From the NCBI GenBank assembly GCA_963840455.1, contig CAWIYV010000010.1, forward strand, positions 128,001 through 192,000: 64,000 nt of DNA, in the 5' to 3' direction. A model generated the notes under the pieces. The model did not search any database. It saw only the letters and a list, made by a program, of their open reading frames with translations, and had not been told where the DNA came from. How positions within the stretch are numbered: position 1 is the stretch's first letter; every line of letters starts with the position of its first letter. This DNA comes from Nitrospirota bacterium. GTDB lineage: Bacteria; Nitrospirota; UBA9217. A program made the position numbers and the translations under genes. Below are positions 1-52,108 of this stretch, in pieces.

Positions 1-762
1 CTGAGGGCATTTTCTCTGGAATTTCGAGTCCACCGGCACAGGCTCCGCCTTGATCTCGACCTTCTGCTCGCCGCCCTCCTTCTGCTTGCCGGGGGCGTCG
101 CTTTTCACGGGAACCTTCTGAGGGCTCGTCTCCTCGGCACGCGGATTTGGCTGCTGTGCAGGCAGGGTCTGCGGTGCGGCAGTCGAGCCCGGTTGCACGG
201 CCGAAGCTTCCGCGGGAAGCTCCTCCACCTTCTTATTGAGAGCTGCTATCTCCGCCCCAATGTTCGCAAAGAGCTCCTTCACGGTCTTCTCGACGAGCGC
301 CAGGTACTTTCCTCGCACCGCAATGCCGGCCTGTATCAACTGTTCTTCGCTCTCGAGCTGCGCTATCCGCGCACGCAGGTTCGCCATCTCGCCTTTCAAC
401 ATCTGAGACCTGGCTTCCATCGCCTGCAGCTCGCCGTCCCAGCCAGCGTGGGAGGGCATAAGGCCCTTCTCGAGGACCTTCAGCTCCTCAAACTGGCTGT
501 TCATGGCATTGATGACCTCCTGCCGGCCCAACTTCGAGGTCGTGGACAATGCTTTGAGCGCGGCCTGATACCGCTGCTGCTCGTCAGGGATGATCGCGCG
601 GAACGACTCCAGGAGCCCTTGGAATCTTCCGGACATGGTCTCTCCACTTTGGACCACTTTTCGTATCTCTTCGCCGACATTCCGGATCCTGAAGTAAAGA
701 TCTTCGCCTTCAACCGGTCTTGCATAGAGTTCAGTAAAGATCTGGGAAAAGTTCTTGCTCAT
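1..762 (-). CDS. hypothetical coiled-coil protein, runs off the left edge; possible C-terminal zinc ribbon
   Basis: Not in the ORF track. Manual translation from ATG 762 (GGAGAA RBS) is open to base 1: MSKNFSQIFTELYARPVEG...KGEMANLRARIAQLESEE...KFQRKCPQ. Confidence 0.7.
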   Translation of the reverse strand, partial: MSKNFSQIFTELYARPVEGEDLYFRIRNVGEEIRKVVQSGETMSGRFQGLLESFRAIIPDEQQRYQAALKALSTTSKLGRQEVINAMNSQFEELKVLEKGLMPSHAGWDGELQAMEARSQMLKGEMANLRARIAQLESEEQLIQAGIAVRGKYLALVEKTVKELFANIGAEIAALNKKVEELPAEASAVQPGSTAAPQTLPAQQPNPRAEETSPQKVPVKSDAPGKQKEGGEQKVEIKAEPVPVDSKFQRKCPQ

Positions 763-917
763 GCTGTTCTCCGCTTAGCTCCTTCATGCTCTCGTGCTTC
801 AAACTCTGACTTTTTATATTATACACCCTCTCTGCCCGTTGAGAAAAGGGCATCTCCTGAAGGCGCTTGCGTGCCAGGCTCTCTTTATTGACGTTAAGAG
901 AGCGCCTCATTGAGATA

Positions 918-1078
918 TTGAAGCTCCCTGCAGCATGCTGCAGGGAATCGCTCGCCCCTGGATTTAAGCTCCCTAAAGCAAAAGGCATGGAGCTTCGATC
1001 CTCAAGGAACTATTGTTATTCTAATCGCTCGCTAGCCCCACTGCAGGCTACGGGGAATGCGCTCGCTCCTGGATTCAA
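918..1078 (+). mobile_element. palindromic repeat element, locus 1 (IS200/IS605 PATE/MITE-like; one short and one full unit)
   Basis: TTGAAGCTCCCTGCAGCATGCTGCAGGG ... GCGCTCGCTCCTGGATTCAA; homologous to 8657, 17695, 27239 and 52674. Confidence 0.7.
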
Positions 1079-1184
1079 CTCCATCGAGGGAGGTTCAGGC
1101 CGAACTGGAATACCCGGGCTCCAAAGGCTTCCCGCTGGTTTCGAGCGTACTATAACTTCGGCAAAATGGCAATCGAAGAAACAG

Positions 1185-1217: not shown

Positions 1218-1677
1218 CTTGACAGGTTAATCGCTTCGCAACGAGTGCAGCAACGGCTTATGTAATCCGCGAAAAGTTATGCAACATAGGAAACAACATC
1301 CCCAAGATGCCCTCCCCACAACAATTCTGATAACGCGGAGTAAAGAATTAAGGGCCTGATCCCAGAAATTTCCGAGTGACAGATTGGTAGATGAACAACT
1401 TTCCAGTTTTCCGGGTCTGCCCCTCTACTGTCTTGGACCCTCAGTTGTCTGGTATGATGATCCTCCATGCGGGAAGTAATAACCCTTTAGCAGTACTGTT
1501 ATTGATAAAACCTAGCCCCAACCGGTTCTAGTGCACTAAATGCATCAACGTCCCCTATGTTTCCCCGGCGAGTTTTCGCATGTCCTTACCTGCCCTTACA
1601 TCCGACGCTGCTGTACTATGCAGCGACCTCAACTGAATTATAGCAGGAAAGACCGGAGTGATATTCGCTCAGCCCCA

Positions 1678-1706
1678 TTGACAATTCTGCAGGCTGGTGT
1701 TAGCAT
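1678..1706 (+). promoter_or_regulatory. putative sigma70 promoter upstream of the riboswitch
   Basis: TTGACA at 1678 followed by TAGCAT/TATAAA-like -10 candidates. Confidence 0.4.
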
Positions 1707-1740
1707 ATAAATAAAGAGGGCTTATATTGTCCTCATTCAT

Positions 1741-1819
1741 CCCGAAAAGCCAAACCGTCCCTAGTGACGGCGCGGAAAGTCGCGGATCTTGAAGCAAAGA
1801 TAGCCGGATTGCCGAAGGG
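1741..1819 (+). ncRNA. GEMM-I (c-di-GMP-I / c-AMP-GMP class) riboswitch
   Basis: GCCAAACCGTC...GACGGCGCGGAAAGTCGCGGATCT...AGATAGCCGGATTGCCGAA matches the GEMM-I layout; in the 5' UTR of the 1980 gene. Confidence 0.75.
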
Positions 1820-1979
1820 TGAATGACTTCGTGCCGCGGCTATTGCTGTTTCTGTCCCCAAGGCTCGGGCAGGAGCAAGGCGGAGCACGGTTTACGGTGG
1901 GACCACATCACGGCGATGGTGACGGAAGGCCGTGTGCCCCACAGGTACTCTCACTGTTTAGAAAGAAAGGAGAACTACC

Positions 1980-2528
1980 ATGGCAAAGCAGGAAGGCAAA
2001 ATAGACATAGAGAAGATCATGGAGATCTACAAGAAGGTGGGAACTCCCGGCGAGCCTCATAAACTGCTGGCGAAGCTGGAGGGAAGCTGGACCACCAGGA
2101 CCAAGGGTTGGCTGGAAGGCAAGCCGGCCATGGAATCGATTGGCACCTGCGAACAGAAGCTGGTCCTTGACGGGCATTATCTGCAGCAGGTCTATACCGG
2201 CGATATGATGGGACAGCCCTTCAGCGGCATCAACCTCCTGGGGTACAACAACCATACGAAGAAGTATGAGTCGGTCTGGCTCGATTCGATGAGCACCGCC
2301 ATTTACTTTTTCGTTGGCCCTGCAAGCTCGGATGGCAGGACCATTACCCAGGAATGCAGCTATGACGATCCTGTCAGAGGCCCCAGCGTCTGGCGCAGCG
2401 TGACCAGGATCAAGGATGACAAGACCCTGGAGTTTGAGATGTTCATTATTCCCAGGGGAGGAAAGGAAGAGAAGATGATGGAGATGACGGTTAGCCGGAA
2501 GGAAGTCGTCGCCCGCAAGGCAGCGTAG
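1980..2528 (+). CDS. DUF1579-like protein
   Basis: GTPGEPHKLLAKLEGSW...GYNNHTKKYESVWLDSMST; AAGGAG RBS. Confidence 0.8.
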   Translation: MAKQEGKIDIEKIMEIYKKVGTPGEPHKLLAKLEGSWTTRTKGWLEGKPAMESIGTCEQKLVLDGHYLQQVYTGDMMGQPFSGINLLGYNNHTKKYESVWLDSMSTAIYFFVGPASSDGRTITQECSYDDPVRGPSVWRSVTRIKDDKTLEFEMFIIPRGGKEEKMMEMTVSRKEVVARKAA

Positions 2529-46435: not shown

Positions 46436-47290
46436 TCACTGGAACTCTGCCAGCGTCCTTTCGAGCTTCGACCTGTCGAACTGCTCCAGCTTCACCAGCG
46501 GTTTCCCGCCGAGGACCGGAAGGCGCTCTTCGAAGGTCGGCCGGTCGTGCCGATAGATGATGCCGAGCGGAATGCGGTCGCCCCACTCCAGCGCCTTTTC
46601 AAATGCTTTGACGCGGTCTGTCGGATCATGTTCCGGACCAACCTTGTAGACCCGCTGGCGGTACCAGTCGTAGGTGTTCACCTTATTGAAGGACACGCAG
46701 GGCTGGAGGATGTCCACGAGCGAGAACCCCTTGTGGTTGACCGCCGCCTTCACGATGCCCTTCAGGTGCTCCGTATCGCCGGCAAAGGCCCTGGCCGCGA
46801 AGCTGCAGTCCAGCGCCACCGCGAGCGCCATGGGATTGAACTGGCCGGAGATCACGCCGAATGGCACGTTCTTCGTCACCATGCCCTCGCCCGTCGTAGG
46901 CGACGGTTGGCCCTTGGTCAGCCCGTAGATCTGGTTGTCATGGATGAAGATATTGATGTTGATGTTCCTGCGTATCGCTGCCATCAAGTGGTTGCCGCCC
47001 TCGCCATAGCAGTCTCCGTCGCCGGTCGTGACGATCACGGGCATCTCGTGGTTCGCCAGCCGGATGCCTGTGGCGACCGGAAGCGCCCGTCCGTGCAGGC
47101 CGTTGAAGGTGTTTCCTTTCGTGTAATGAGGGAACTTCGCCGCCTGGCCGATGCCGGACACAAGCATATAGCGATGGGGCTCGATGCCCAGCTCCGCCAT
47201 GGCGTCCTTGAACGTCTTCAGGATGGGGAAGTTCCCGCACCCCGGGCACCACTCAGGGACCAATCCTCGATATTCCTCTGATGTCGGCAT
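46436..47290 (-). CDS. 2-oxoacid:ferredoxin oxidoreductase beta subunit
   Basis: WCPGCGN, LHGRALP, GDGD, YGLTKGQ. Confidence 0.93.
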   Translation of the reverse strand: MPTSEEYRGLVPEWCPGCGNFPILKTFKDAMAELGIEPHRYMLVSGIGQAAKFPHYTKGNTFNGLHGRALPVATGIRLANHEMPVIVTTGDGDCYGEGGNHLMAAIRRNININIFIHDNQIYGLTKGQPSPTTGEGMVTKNVPFGVISGQFNPMALAVALDCSFAARAFAGDTEHLKGIVKAAVNHKGFSLVDILQPCVSFNKVNTYDWYRQRVYKVGPEHDPTDRVKAFEKALEWGDRIPLGIIYRHDRPTFEERLPVLGGKPLVKLEQFDRSKLERTLAEFQ

Positions 47291-47411
47291 AGTGCTCTCC
47301 TCGAGAAAATCTGAAAACGCCTTAACAAATGTAAAAAATCCTTCCCGCGGTGCCCTATTACTTGGCTCACGGTATTCTTCGTGCTGCCAGACCTGTTCCG
47401 ATCTTTGCTCC

Positions 47412-49142
47412 TTATGGCTTCTTGATCATCCCTTTCAGGTTCTCCACCAGCGATTCCACGGTGAAGGGCCTGCCGTCGTACTTGTTGAGCAGGGCACCAA
47501 ACTCGTAGCCCGTCTCGGTCTTCATCAGCCGCGCGAATTGGCCCGTGGCATTCTGCTCGACGCAGATAGTGAGCCTCGCGCCTTTAAGCAGCCCCAGGTA
47601 GTCGAGCTTCTCCGTGCCCGGGAAAGGATAGATCTCGCCGAAATGGAGCATGGCGACGCCGTAGGACCTCGACAGCTCGTCAACAGCCTCGCGCAGAAGA
47701 CCGTACAGCGAGCCCCATCCGGCGATCACGATGTCAGGGCCGTGTTCCCCGTACAGGAATGGCGGCGCGATCTCCTCCTGCATGTGCGGCAGCTTCGAGA
47801 ACATCCTCTTCTCCACCATCTTGATGCGAATATTTGCGTCTTCCGTGATGTGGCCGTCCTCACCGTGCTCGTCGCTGTCAGTCACCACCAGGTGCCGTGC
47901 GTCACCCGGCACGGCCAGCGGGCTCACGCCGTTCGAACTGTAGGCGTGGCGCTGGTAGCTTGCCAGCTTCTGGAACGCATCTCCCCGGAGGCGGTAGTCA
48001 GTGTTCCGGATCCTCTCCAGGTCGAACCCGCGGGAGGTCCACTGCGTGTCAGCAAGATAGGTGTCGAAAAGAACGAAGGCCGGGACCTGGTATTTCTCGG
48101 TAAGGTCAAAGGCCTTGTTGGTCAGGAAGAAGGCCTGCTCGGGCGTGCCAGGCGCGAAGATGAACCGGGGGAACTCACCATGCCCTGCATGAAGCGCCAT
48201 GTGGAGGTCTGCCTGCTCCGTTTTGGTCGGGAGGCCCGTGGCAGGGCCCGGCCGCTGGCCCAGGGCGATCACGACCGGTGTCTCGGTCATCGCGGCAAGG
48301 GATACCCCCTCCACCATGAGCGCGAACCCGCCGCCGGAAGTCCCGGTCATGGCGCGCACGCCCGCGAAGGACGCGCCGAGGGCCATGTTGATGGCAGCGA
48401 TCTCGTCCTCGGCCTGCTCCACCACAATGCTGTATTCCTGCTCCTTTCCCGCCAGGTAGTTCATGATGCCGGTGGAAGGCGTCATGGGGTAGGCTGAGTA
48501 GAACTTCACGCCTGACGCCAGGGCGCCTAGGGCGATTGACTCGGATCCTCCCACCAGCATGCGCGGTCCGGCCTTGTCGTCAACATTGACGGCAAAGTTG
48601 CACTTGAGGCAGCCCTTGATCGCATGGTCGTACCCGGCTAGCGCTGCGTTCCGGTTCGCCGTGACAACCTTCTCGCCTTTTTTCCTGAAGATCTCGTCGA
48701 TGATCCCCATCAGGAAGCCGAGGTCCATGTTTAGCATGCCGAGCACCGCGCCGGTGGCAACGGTGTTTGCCATGATCTTGTCGCCGCCGTGCTCTGTGGC
48801 GAGCCTGGAGAAGGGAATATCGAGGAACGCCTGCTTGTCGTGCTTCTCCTTGAGCGTGTCCGCATCGTAGATGATCTGGCCCCGTGGCGTGAGTTCGTGC
48901 TCGTGGAGCTGGATGCTTTCCTTATCAAGGGCCACGATGATGTCAACCGCCTCCTTCGGCGCCATGACCGGCTGGTCAGCGAAGCGGACCTGGTAGTAGT
49001 TATGGCCGCCGCGCACGCGGGACTCGTAGTCCTGGTTCGTGAAGACATGGAACCCGGCGCGGGCGAATACATGGCCCAGTGTATCGCCGATCGTCTGGAT
49101 GCCCTGACCCGCCTCACCGCCGATCTTGATCGTATAGTCCAT
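47412..49142 (-). CDS. 2-oxoacid:ferredoxin oxidoreductase alpha (gamma-alpha fused) subunit
   Basis: GGEAGQG, YPMTPS, QAEDEIAA, QRPGPATGLPT. Confidence 0.93.
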   Translation of the reverse strand: MDYTIKIGGEAGQGIQTIGDTLGHVFARAGFHVFTNQDYESRVRGGHNYYQVRFADQPVMAPKEAVDIIVALDKESIQLHEHELTPRGQIIYDADTLKEKHDKQAFLDIPFSRLATEHGGDKIMANTVATGAVLGMLNMDLGFLMGIIDEIFRKKGEKVVTANRNAALAGYDHAIKGCLKCNFAVNVDDKAGPRMLVGGSESIALGALASGVKFYSAYPMTPSTGIMNYLAGKEQEYSIVVEQAEDEIAAINMALGASFAGVRAMTGTSGGGFALMVEGVSLAAMTETPVVIALGQRPGPATGLPTKTEQADLHMALHAGHGEFPRFIFAPGTPEQAFFLTNKAFDLTEKYQVPAFVLFDTYLADTQWTSRGFDLERIRNTDYRLRGDAFQKLASYQRHAYSSNGVSPLAVPGDARHLVVTDSDEHGEDGHITEDANIRIKMVEKRMFSKLPHMQEEIAPPFLYGEHGPDIVIAGWGSLYGLLREAVDELSRSYGVAMLHFGEIYPFPGTEKLDYLGLLKGARLTICVEQNATGQFARLMKTETGYEFGALLNKYDGRPFTVESLVENLKGMIKKP

Positions 49143-49710: not shown

Positions 49711-49758
49711 GGGCATATTATAACAAAAAATCTAAGAACCATCGTGTATAATTGACTC

Positions 49759-50901
49759 ATGGGCTTTCATCTCACCAGACAGACAGCTCTCAAGTGGCTC
49801 GAAGCACCCTCGGTGTACCAGATCGCCCGGGACGAGGTCTATGAACTGGACGATGATTCCTTCCGCTTCCTCACCTCCTGTGCCTCCGAGGAAGGATGCG
49901 ACAATCGGGACAGCGCCTTCATCGACTACTGCCTTGAGGAGGGTCTTTTGACGCGGGAAAAGGTCGTGCTCAAGCGTCCGCACCTCAAACCTTCTCCGGA
50001 CCCTTCGCTCCGCTATCTTGAGCTGCAGCTGACCAGCCGCTGCAATCTCCGCTGCAGGCACTGTTACATCGGCGACGACACGCCCCGGGAGCTGAGCTCG
50101 GTCCAGGTCCGGGCGGTGTTGAAGGAGTTCGAGGAGATGCAGGGCCTGCGTGTGCTGCTCACCGGCGGCGAGCCCCTCCTCCACTCCCGGTTCGATGAGA
50201 TCAACGAGATGCTCCCCGACTTGTTCCTCAGGAAGGTCCTGTTCACCAACGGCGTCCTGCTCAAGAAGGACGTGCTGAATCGCCTCAAGGTCCACGAGAT
50301 CCAGGTGAGCATCGATGGTATGGCGGCAGCGCACGACGCCCTTCGCGGCGCCGGTACATGGGACGTCGCGCTCGACGCTGTGCGACGCGCCCTGGACGCC
50401 GGATTCGAGGTCTCGGTCTCGACCATGGTCCATGCCGGGAATCTCGGCGATTTCGATCCCATGGAAAAGCTCTTTAAATCACTCGGCATCAAGGACTGGA
50501 CCGTCGACGTGCCCTGCACCGCAGGGAGGCTGAGGGACAACCGTGAGCTGACGGTCAGTCCCGAGGTGGGCGGAAAATATCTCGGCTACGGATATGGCGG
50601 CGGGATGCACGCCACGGGACCGGGGTATGCCTGCGGCCTGCATCTCATGGCCGTACTGCCCGACGGCACCGCAGCGAAGTGCACCTTCTATGGGGACCGG
50701 TCAGTCGGCACCATCGGCGAGGGGCTTCATACCTGCTGGCAGCGCATCCGTCCCGTCAGGCTCGATAGCCTCGATTGCAGGTGCGAATATCTCGAAGCCT
50801 GCCGCGGCGGATGCCGGTACCGCGCAGAGCTCCTGAAAAATCCCCAAGGGAGGGACCTGTACCGCTGTTCGCTCTATGGGGTCATTGACAAAGCAGGATA
50901 G
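49759..50901 (+). CDS. radical SAM/SPASM enzyme with N-terminal extension (putative RRE); candidate peptide maturase
   Basis: CNLRCRHC, TGGEP, C-terminal CG...PDG...C...C-C..C.GGC...C SPASM-type cysteines. Confidence 0.88.
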   Translation: MGFHLTRQTALKWLEAPSVYQIARDEVYELDDDSFRFLTSCASEEGCDNRDSAFIDYCLEEGLLTREKVVLKRPHLKPSPDPSLRYLELQLTSRCNLRCRHCYIGDDTPRELSSVQVRAVLKEFEEMQGLRVLLTGGEPLLHSRFDEINEMLPDLFLRKVLFTNGVLLKKDVLNRLKVHEIQVSIDGMAAAHDALRGAGTWDVALDAVRRALDAGFEVSVSTMVHAGNLGDFDPMEKLFKSLGIKDWTVDVPCTAGRLRDNRELTVSPEVGGKYLGYGYGGGMHATGPGYACGLHLMAVLPDGTAAKCTFYGDRSVGTIGEGLHTCWQRIRPVRLDSLDCRCEYLEACRGGCRYRAELLKNPQGRDLYRCSLYGVIDKAG

Positions 50902-50913
50902 AATTGTTACTAT
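50885..50913 (+). promoter_or_regulatory. sigma70 promoter for the small peptide gene
   Basis: TTGACA-N17-TACTAT overlapping the radical SAM stop region. Confidence 0.7.
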
Positions 50914-50941
50914 TCAATCAATGATGAAAGGAGGAGGCACC

Positions 50942-51004
50942 ATGTCCATTAAAAAGGTAGCAAAGACCGCGGCAACGACGTGCAAGTGCAAAAGCTCCTG
51001 CTAG
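50942..51004 (+). CDS. 20-aa Cys-rich peptide, putative RiPP precursor
   Basis: MSIKKVAKTAATTCKCKSSC*; strong RBS AAAGGAGGAGG; promoter before and terminator after. Confidence 0.75.
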   Translation: MSIKKVAKTAATTCKCKSSC

Positions 51005-51035
51005 CAGCACGCGACATCGCGCTCCAAACAATACG

Positions 51036-51071
51036 AGCTCGGGAATATCTTCCCGAGCTCTTGTTTTTTTC
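51036..51071 (+). terminator. intrinsic terminator after the peptide gene
   Basis: GAGCTCGGGAA-TATC-TTCCCGAGCTC followed by TTGTTTTTTTT. Confidence 0.85.
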
Positions 51072-51622: not shown

Positions 51623-52108
51623 TTATCCCTCGATGACACCCCGCTCCTCCCAGAGGAACCAGTTACCTGTATCCGAGAGATGACTGTAGGTGTTCGCAAA
51701 GATCTCGTAGTGCTGCCGCTCTTCCTCGATCAACCTCGTGAACAGGGCCTTCTCCTTGTCCGTTTTGGCCGTTGCGAGTGACTTGCGGTAGAACTTTTCT
51801 CCTTCCTTTTCCATCTCCATGGCGATCTTGAAAGCATCGAGCTCGTCCTTGCTTGCCGCCACTTTTTTCATCATCGTGTCCTTCATGGACTCGAAGACCG
51901 TCTTGACCTTGCCCATGGGGCTCACGTCATCAATTTTGATGTTCATGCCCCTGATGAGGTCCGAGATCATGGTCAGGTGGCGTTTTTCATCCTCCGTGAT
52001 GCTAAGAAACATCTTCTTTCCGGCCTCATAGCCTGTTTTTCCGGCAGCCTCGGTGTAGAATTTGATGGCATCGGTCTCCATTTTCCTGGCCACTTCAAGT
52101 GCGTTCAT
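51623..52108 (-). CDS. ferritin-like / rubrerythrin-family protein
   Basis: Duplicated E...FY...EExxH di-iron pattern (EDEKRH, EEERQH). Confidence 0.85.
   Translation of the reverse strand: MNALEVARKMETDAIKFYTEAAGKTGYEAGKKMFLSITEDEKRHLTMISDLIRGMNIKIDDVSPMGKVKTVFESMKDTMMKKVAASKDELDAFKIAMEMEKEGEKFYRKSLATAKTDKEKALFTRLIEEERQHYEIFANTYSHLSDTGNWFLWEERGVIEG

Follow-up and report, generated by a model that had tools for sequence, protein, structure and literature searches.

Radical S-adenosylmethionine (SAM)/SPASM maturases are a main source of new peptide chemistry. In CteB, which acts on the SCIFF ranthipeptide precursor CteA (PDB 5wgg, 5why), and in SkfB, which acts on the sactipeptide precursor SkfA (PDB 6efn), an N-terminal recognition domain is followed by a radical SAM core and a twin-cluster SPASM region. 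SuiB, which builds the Lys-Trp crosslink of streptide in SuiA (PDB 5v1q, 5v1s, 5v1t), includes a RiPP recognition element (RRE; RiPP, a peptide made on ribosomes and modified after translation). The pyrroloquinoline quinone (PQQ) and mycofactocin systems (PqqE/PqqD/PqqA and MftC/MftB/MftA) combine a short conserved precursor with an RRE-dependent SPASM enzyme, have no exporter and are housekeeping-like. CrpC of Methanococcus voltae, a SPASM enzyme for which an RRE is predicted, is reported to introduce ranthionine crosslinks into CrpA, encoded by the adjacent gene, and N-terminal domains are said to aid substrate engagement (PMC13692751, 2026). Here, we analyze a locus with the same general layout in a stretch of 64,000 nucleotides (the window) from a Nitrospirota bacterium of the lineage UBA9217 (GenBank assembly GCA_963840455.1, contig CAWIYV010000010.1, positions 128,001 to 192,000). 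In this locus, a gene for a radical SAM/SPASM enzyme (P0001) is followed by a 20-codon open reading frame (ORF) for a cysteine-rich peptide, and a divergent gene encodes a small protein with seven invariant cysteines (P0124). We propose that these three parts form a peptide-maturation system, a reading to which, taken as a whole and with all the mechanistic steps set out below, we assign a probability of about 0.6. That the peptide is the substrate of the enzyme is in itself highly probable.

The 20-codon reading frame

The peptide ORF starts 40 nt past the enzyme stop codon, which ends at 50901, and corresponds to the last 20 residues of a longer (42-residue) in-frame reading. An earlier sequence-only reading of the window had credited this ORF with a ribosome-binding site, a promoter and a terminator of its own, and both the sequence and a pattern scan placed the ORF, the gap and the three signals exactly where they had been reported (Table 1). 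The peptides encoded by homologous loci follow the consensus M-x-I-[KR]-K-[VI]-x-[KR]-x-x-x-x-[TLMI]-C-K-C-K-x-[ST]-C, which runs directly into the stop codon. Their N-terminal half is basic and leader-like (x-I-[KR]-K-[VI]-x-[KR]), and their C-terminal part forms a core, [TLMI]-C-K-C-K-x-[ST]-C, with which the peptide of the window ends as CKCKSSC. The length is 20 residues in every locus read except in genomes G081 and G119, where 19 residues follow from the methionine.

Being shorter than the limits of gene callers, such an ORF could be a chance frame, or the conserved stretch could act as a non-coding RNA or a regulatory element. Indeed, none of six peptide variants sought among 15 billion predicted proteins was present, so that the gene has been missed by gene callers. 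The comparison of 76 distinct homologous nucleotide versions of the ORF speaks clearly against a chance frame. Entropy at codon positions 1, 2 and 3 was 0.42, 0.35 and 1.24, respectively, the third position being about three times more variable than the other two, and residues I3, K5, T13, C14, C16, K17, S19 and C20 were unvarying despite synonymous changes. Three start codons are used (ATG in 70 versions, GTG in four and TTG in two), all three stop codons occur (TGA in 32, TAA in 30 and TAG in 14), and a Shine-Dalgarno core at -20..-4 was found in 76/76 versions, being the sole conserved stretch upstream. Since the substitution pattern is that of a coding sequence, the ORF is most simply read as a translated gene; judged by these alignments, it is a real gene under purifying selection, and the chance of a fortuitous frame or a non-coding element is negligible.

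The surrounding signals also recur. In 98 distinct loci compared with shuffled sequences, 78 had the promoter motif TGnTAnnnT at 25-160 nt upstream of the ATG of the peptide, compared with 12.5 +/- 3.5 in shuffles. In part, this signal falls on the enzyme's conserved ...YGII codons and thus is not fully independent evidence. A hairpin followed by a T-run was present at most 80 nt downstream of the peptide in 79 of the 98 loci (13.7 in shuffles). Two metatranscriptome contigs from one study, X15 (50875..51025) and X16 (50760..50985), span the peptide gene; being contigs in RNA libraries, they give neither transcription, strand nor expression level, and were not counted as evidence.

The enzyme and the predicted binding of the peptide

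The sequence-only reading had described P0001 as a SPASM-type enzyme with a CxxxCxxC motif (C95-x3-C99-x2-C102) and an N-terminal extension of about 80 residues, and each element of this description was borne out. By its motif and by a PF04055 match above the gathering score, the sole Pfam match of the full enzyme, P0001 belongs to the radical SAM superfamily. Its C-terminal 113 residues (268-380), scanned alone, matched TIGR04085 with 32.5 bits (cutoff 27), which together with the seven-cysteine motif places it in the SPASM subfamily; the invariant cysteine columns were counted over 70 relatives. PF13186 was undetected in P0001 itself and present in 17 of the 70 relatives. The SPASM motif reads CX9-15GX4C ... 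CX2CX5CX3C ... C. In the enzyme, G-x4-C is followed by C292-x15-C308, then by C340-x-C342-x5-C348-x3-C352 and finally by C370, a departure from the motif in that one residue, not two, separates C340 from C342. Two auxiliary [4Fe-4S] clusters would be expected in this region.

The AlphaFold model of the enzyme was of high quality (predicted local distance difference test, pLDDT, 94.4; predicted template modelling score, pTM, 0.92). A profile search of the PDB ranked SkfB first (8.6e-40), followed by PqqE (1.1e-32), CteB (1.2e-29), anSME and SuiB. In the VIA fold comparison, SuiB gave a Z of 26.6 with a root-mean-square deviation of 4.0 over 356 aligned residues (model residues 2..375 versus chain residues 1..439), SkfB a Z of 26.2 and CteB a Z of 24.3, and the alignments to SuiB, SkfB and anSME extend to about enzyme residue 377. 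No NCBIfam family cutoff was reached by the enzyme, the best scores being about 87 bits against cutoffs of 400-500 (AhbD, 87.1/500; ScmE, 86.7/400), followed by MftC (80.8/265), GeoRSP (66.2/400), ACGX (65.1/400) and the geopeptide maturase (13.5/400); among the sactipeptide-maturase models, StsB gave 60.8/625, SkfB 59.6/300 and AlbA 56.1/850. Six distant members of the enzyme family also remained below every NCBIfam cutoff, and the peptide matched no family at E<=10, nor does any Pfam peptide family describe the system. Precursor and enzyme thus lie outside the named families tested (geopeptide, SCIFF, Scm, mycofactocin and the other NCBIfam models), as had been suspected from the outset.

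Models also suggest how the peptide may be recognized. The predicted N-terminal domain begins with four short strands (3-5, 9-13, 17-21 and 26-29), after which come two helices (32-41 and 52-60), and the superposition on SuiB, starting from model residue 2, takes in SuiB's own N-terminal domain. A complex was modelled from three chains, namely the enzyme, the Cys-rich protein P0124 and the peptide as part of its 42-residue in-frame reading. Its interaction prediction score from aligned errors (ipSAE) was 0.79, compared with 0.07 for the best control; among solved complexes, 58 of 80 attain this mark, as do 2 of 110 mismatched pairs. At least 43% of contacts are shared between the runs. Modelled contacts involve native residues 1-11, 13 and 14 on the peptide side and residues 18-19, 25-31, 33-34, 37, 54-61, 248, 278-286 and 352 on the enzyme side, the tightest joining I3-K4-K5-V6 of the peptide to residues 26-31 and to helix residues 34, 54, 57, 58 and 61. 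The 13 orthologues over which conservation of this domain was assessed all have D25 and Y28, and nearly all have E29 and D31. The peptide would therefore meet, with its best-conserved, basic part, the acidic part of the domain that is itself the most conserved. Contacts at 248, 278-286 and 352 lead toward the catalytic barrel and the SPASM region. The peptide leader is therefore modelled as binding the RRE-like domain of the enzyme.

With regard to expression of the enzyme gene, its ATG (49759) has no Shine-Dalgarno site, and a TATAAT at 49747..49752 ends 6 nt before it (49745..49761), which suggests a leaderless transcript. The pattern scan called no promoter at 49745..49761, and no -35 element matches there.

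Linkage, the seven-cysteine protein and distribution

Homologous loci were collected in three sets that partly overlap, some contigs being identical: 20 loci (L001-L020) from a search of 41 related genomes, with further regions L021-L029; the best 80 of 504 relatives among species-representative genomes (L032-L111); and the loci of a metagenome scan seeded with distant family members (L112-L137). The sequence-only reading had named the conservation of a short Cys-rich ORF beside enzyme homologues as a check, and such an ORF was found in all three sets. The peptide ORF lies on the enzyme strand in 21 of 26 relatives' loci, with one more cut by a contig end; it is downstream on the same strand in 69 of the 80 representative loci, three of the 11 misses ending at most 300 nt from the enzyme; and it is present in 19 of 23 metagenome loci, downstream of the enzyme in 17 and upstream in two. 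The upstream cases include a different gene order, since in L112 and L113 the peptide, the Cys-rich protein and the enzyme follow one another as adjacent or overlapping ORFs. The peptide was not found in the flanks examined of L122, L123, L125, L132 and eleven other loci, in which it may be encoded elsewhere in the genome, as in G027. By these counts, the adjacency of peptide and enzyme far exceeds chance. Taken together, the conservation of the peptide beside enzyme homologues, the models and the lack of any NCBIfam match support the central proposal of the sequence-only reading, that an RRE-bearing SPASM enzyme acts on a very small adjacent precursor outside the named families.

Besides its operon, L112 contains, upstream, a gene for an M50 site-2 protease with a PDZ domain (4..1152, + strand) and a second, shorter radical SAM/SPASM gene encoding 313 residues (1413..2354, + strand), and a tRNA-like stretch follows the three genes. 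This arrangement was seen in no other locus read.

The Cys-rich protein P0124 is a third conserved component of the system, overlooked in the first reading. Its invariant cysteines are C15, C19, C32, C72, C75, C82 and C94, its motif reads C-x3-C-x-[YF]-[YF]-K ... C-x2-C-x-F ... D-C-D-F ... P-C-G-G, and its gene is upstream of and divergent from the enzyme gene in 63 of the 80 representative loci. P0124 had no Pfam or NCBIfam match, its atlas neighbours being unnamed clusters that are commonest in Nitrospirota and Thermodesulfobacteriota. The model is helical (pLDDT 80.4), and Foldseek retrieved nothing among solved structures at E<=0.001; the best hit of a wide VIA search, an asparaginyl ligase proenzyme, had a Z of only 4.4, and no fold was assigned. 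One link to the enzyme comes from protein fusions: along its entire length, P0124 can be aligned with the N-terminal part of the approximately 500-residue proteins P0135 and P0134 (E of 5e-14 and 4e-14), and a region search returned 15 clusters of fusions of this size with a P0124-like N-terminal segment of about 115 residues, all of them with PF04055 and one named Desulfomonile sp. A search for longer homologues with the Cys-rich alignment gave none; this search is weak, as chance word matches crowd out relatives.

The phyletic distribution was examined in one even set of 201 genomes of the phylum, with cutoffs of E<=1e-60 for the enzyme and E<=1e-8 for the Cys-rich protein, and with a C-terminal DNA motif for the peptide. 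The enzyme was detected in 85 genomes, the peptide motif in 83 and both in 80; of the three genomes with the motif but no enzyme, one (G168) is a false match that ends in TGG instead of a stop codon. The reversed control pattern matched twice in the 201 genomes. The Cys-rich protein was found in 80 genomes, in 77 of them together with the enzyme. All three parts occur in whole families (10/10 genomes of f16, 12/13 of f11) and are absent from others (0/28 in f9, 0/28 in f10, 0/11 in f8). Most positive genomes have a single match to the peptide motif, with one copy each of the enzyme and the Cys-rich protein. The genes lie dispersed over the chromosome in f16, f4 and some further lineages but are retained in full; the positions in G081, for example, are 855 kb for the enzyme, 1000 kb for the peptide and 1056 kb for the Cys-rich gene. 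The contexts of unlinked peptide genes vary, including DUF2148 and tetratricopeptide repeat genes, superoxide dismutase and ferritin-like ORFs (G027), and a Cu-type P-type ATPase. Unlinked Cys-rich genes were found, as judged by translations only, next to a 104-residue ORF (G036, G185) or to ferritin-like and oxidoreductase-like ORFs (G200). No partner is common to these unlinked contexts. A connecting role for the Cys-rich protein between the oxidoreductase and the enzyme was considered and dropped. Changed gene order, fusion and retention without linkage are stronger arguments for a functional association than the counts themselves. As read from the genomes sampled, the system is vertically inherited, usually in single copy, in anaerobic Nitrospirota.

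Some individual genomes deserve mention. One of the 80 best loci (L037), labelled Betaproteobacteria bacterium MAG281, carries, as Nitrospirota loci do, the peptide and the Cys-rich gene together with an enzyme 68% identical to that of the window, and its contig is probably mis-binned or mislabelled. Three genomes (G042, G050 and G178) have two peptide-motif matches each, which may include paralogues of the peptide; those of G042 and G050 include CKCKESC variants, and one of the G178 matches ends in TGG instead of a stop codon.

These data bear on whether the peptide could be an independent, unmodified thiol- or metal-binding small protein, with the enzyme acting on the Cys-rich protein or on a small molecule. 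The unlinked peptide and enzyme genes of f16, f4, G167, G182 and G193, as well as the promoter and terminator that the peptide gene appears to possess, would be compatible with such independence, and a precedent exists in the crosslinking of the Cys-rich protein CrpA reported for the SPASM enzyme CrpC (PMC13692751). The tight co-occurrence (80 of 85 enzyme genomes have the peptide, and 80 of 83 vice versa) and the existence of two different linked gene orders argue for a joint function instead. In addition, the complex model lays the conserved leader on the RRE-like domain, and the fusion of the Cys-rich protein to the N-terminus of the enzyme fits a domain better than a substrate. Independent action of the peptide is thus improbable, and we favour its maturation by the enzyme.

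As for the neighbouring genes (Table 1), the sequence-only reading had noted that no protease or exporter is adjacent. This holds for the system in general: no protease, exporter or immunity gene recurs near it in the 80 representative loci, the sole exception being a LysE-type exporter gene located 2 kb away, which is found in 11 of these loci only. The recurrent neighbours are rubrerythrin (51/80) and the alpha subunit of a 2-oxoacid:ferredoxin oxidoreductase (38/80), an association that may be inherited synteny. P0123 belongs to no Pfam or NCBIfam family, is found downstream in 32 of the 80 loci and forms part of a 90-member cluster named 'hypothetical protein'.

Table 1. Features of the maturation locus and its flanks in the window (position 1 is the first nucleotide of the window).
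Feature	Positions	Strand	Remarks
2-oxoacid:acceptor oxidoreductase, alpha and beta subunits	46436..49142	-	Same strand as the Cys-rich gene, immediately downstream of it
Cys-rich protein P0124, 115 aa	49369..49716	-	ORF, divergent from the enzyme
Radical SAM/SPASM enzyme P0001, 380 aa	49759..50901	+	ORF
N-terminal RRE-like domain, residues 1-80	49759..49998	+	Predicted model
Radical SAM core	50008..50553	+	PF04055, 77.7 bits (cutoff 29.5), residues 90-224
CX3CX2C motif (C95, C99, C102)	50041..50064	+	Invariant in 70 relatives
SPASM region with seven invariant Cys (C292, C308, C340, C342, C348, C352, C370)	50632..50868	+	TIGR04085; 70 relatives
Promoter-like site, TTGACA-17-TACTAT	50885..50913	+	10/12 matches, TG before -10; overlaps the last enzyme codons
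Shine-Dalgarno site AAAGGAGGAGG	50927..50937	+	Ends 4 nt before the ATG
Candidate precursor peptide gene, 20 aa, MSIKKVAKTAATTCKCKSSC	50942..51004	+	20-codon ORF, ATG at 50942
Intrinsic terminator, 11-bp GC-rich hairpin and T-run	51035..51070	+	Hairpin 51035..51060, then TTGTTTTTTT
Hypothetical protein P0123, 91 aa	51232..51507	-	Convergent with the peptide gene
Rubrerythrin-type ferritin-like gene	51623..52108	-	Flanks the system on the other side

Proposed mechanism, product and comparison with known systems

In the mechanism that we propose, the 20-residue precursor would be made from its own small transcription unit, and its basic stretch I3-K4-K5-V6 would form a strand and pair with one of the RRE-like domain, the acidic DExYELD strand. 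This binding would feed the core C-K-C-K-x-S/T-C into the radical SAM active site, where the enzyme would cleave SAM and abstract a hydrogen from a core residue, and the two SPASM clusters would help to form intramolecular crosslinks. Hydrogen abstraction and crosslinking within CKCKxSC are proposed because of the relatives of the enzyme. By analogy, the crosslinks would most likely be Cys-S-to-carbon thioethers of the sactionine or ranthionine type, an assignment that is tentative, its odds being a little short of even. The Cys-rich protein would be an obligate accessory, probably binding a metal or an Fe-S cluster, that docks on the enzyme or supplies it with electrons. The product would remain intracellular: the absence of recurrent export, protease and immunity genes, the invariant core, the mostly single-copy, vertical inheritance and the redox neighbours favour an intracellular role over an antibiotic one.

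Several observations weigh against this proposal. The identification of the N-terminal extension as an RRE, made in the sequence-only reading, is tentative: the superposition on the SuiB N-terminal domain and the placement of the peptide on the extension, both in models, are consistent with it, and the Pfam PqqD family (PF05402) was absent from P0001 at E<=0.1 and found in only two of 70 relatives (best E of 2.3e-4), so that the assignment rests on models and not on sequence. In the complex model, the pLDDT of the partner is low (45-48); the model also departs from the calibration of the tool, as it includes 22 non-native residues before the peptide, custom alignments and three chains. Since leader-RRE complexes have already been solved, its high score may reflect likeness only and is not proof. 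The peptide and the Cys-rich protein made no confident contact in it, an absence from which no inference is allowed. The genomes of the phylum sample are related to one another, and the co-occurrence counts therefore overstate independence. Five enzyme-bearing genomes lack the peptide motif, G034 and G120 being contig-end cases, and eight have no Cys-rich protein at E<=1e-8, so this accessory is either not universal or diverged; G006 and G010 have the enzyme only, and G030, G043, G086 and G092 have enzyme and peptide with no detectable Cys-rich protein. The fusions were seen as predicted proteins only, and for the P0135 cluster some callers give 400 residues, not 505. Finally, the crosslink type is a guess based on the nearest characterized relatives of the enzyme, among which there are also formers of C-C bonds (PqqE, SuiB) and an oxidase (anSME).

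What the modified peptide does is a separate question. It might be a housekeeping prosthetic peptide, the precursor of a cofactor comparable to PQQ or mycofactocin, or a metal- or cluster-binding peptide that these anaerobes use intracellularly, a role that concerns the product and is compatible with the maturation mechanism. Consistent with this, the core is invariant and the length almost always 20 residues across enzymes down to about 43% identity, the three components mostly occur once per positive genome, and the system is present or absent as a block, by family. The lack of a recurring protease, exporter or immunity gene nearby, the redox character of the neighbours (the rubrerythrin and oxidoreductase alpha-subunit genes, and the superoxide dismutase and ferritin-like ORFs beside the G027 peptide) and the position of PqqE as the second-best PDB sequence match point in the same direction. 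Known peptide-derived cofactors, however, depend on additional enzymes, a peptidase and an oxidase for example, and none of these is conserved in this system; no enzyme family that would require the product was identified, the redox genes nearby may reflect synteny inherited among relatives, and the MftC and PqqE family models score far under their cutoffs. On balance, we regard such a role as unlikely. In its boldest form, the CKCK peptide would constitute, or give rise to, a new prosthetic group derived from a peptide, or a cofactor that binds metal or Fe-S, in anaerobic Thermodesulfovibrio-type Nitrospirota and Desulfomonile, made by an RRE-SPASM enzyme with a seven-cysteine domain of unseen fold; this form is unlikely as well.

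A secreted RiPP with an antimicrobial or signalling function, belonging to the classical natural products of the sactipeptide or ranthipeptide type, would be in line with the products of the nearest characterized relatives, SkfB and CteB, and with the promoter and terminator of the precursor gene, since many RiPP precursors are likewise expressed from signals of their own. Against it, neither an exporter nor a leader peptidase nor an immunity gene is conserved in the vicinity, and the core is invariant instead of diversified. Together with the usually single-copy, vertical inheritance and the 20-residue length, which leaves little room for a cleaved leader, these observations make secretion very improbable, and an intracellular product of the maturation system is preferred.

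If the proposal is right, the substrate of a whole enzyme family has been hidden because its gene is only 20 codons long. Few candidate precursors are as small as this peptide, in which leader (IKKV) and core (CKCKxSC) are clearly set apart, and it would thus be an easy target for co-expression and mass spectrometry. The seven-cysteine accessory, which matches no family or fold, is a new domain linked to the enzyme through fusion and co-occurrence. The distribution is housekeeping-like rather than suggestive of warfare, and sulfate reducers and related anaerobes may therefore possess a novel peptide cofactor or metal carrier; were a cofactor made, it would join PQQ and mycofactocin as another example.

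Compared with known systems, the locus resembles those of CteB and SkfB in the layout of the enzyme and in a candidate substrate which, like CteA and SkfA, is rich in cysteine. The peptide is unrelated, however, with 20 residues, three cysteines and a C-terminal cysteine, the sactipeptide-maturase models of NCBIfam score far under their cutoffs, and the system is vertically inherited in Nitrospirota. SCIFF peptides, in turn, have about 45 residues and six cysteines. To our knowledge, the seven-cysteine accessory has no counterpart in the CteB and SkfB systems. SuiB is the best whole-length fold match, RRE included, but sequence identity is 14-16%, the peptide contains no Trp and the chemistry is probably different. 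In contrast to the PQQ and mycofactocin systems, no peptidase or downstream tailoring genes are conserved, and the core residues are Cys, Lys and Ser, not Glu/Tyr or Val-Tyr. The likeness of CrpC/CrpA to this system is one of description, and the substrate there is reported to be a Cys-rich protein and not a 20-mer (PMC13692751). Literature searches, with the supplementary lists of large RiPP atlases outside their scope, found no paper on a CKCK peptide system. The evidence thus points to a peptide-maturation system undescribed to date, which would work like the RRE-dependent SPASM maturases CteB, SkfB, SuiB, PqqE and MftC and is outside every named family tested.

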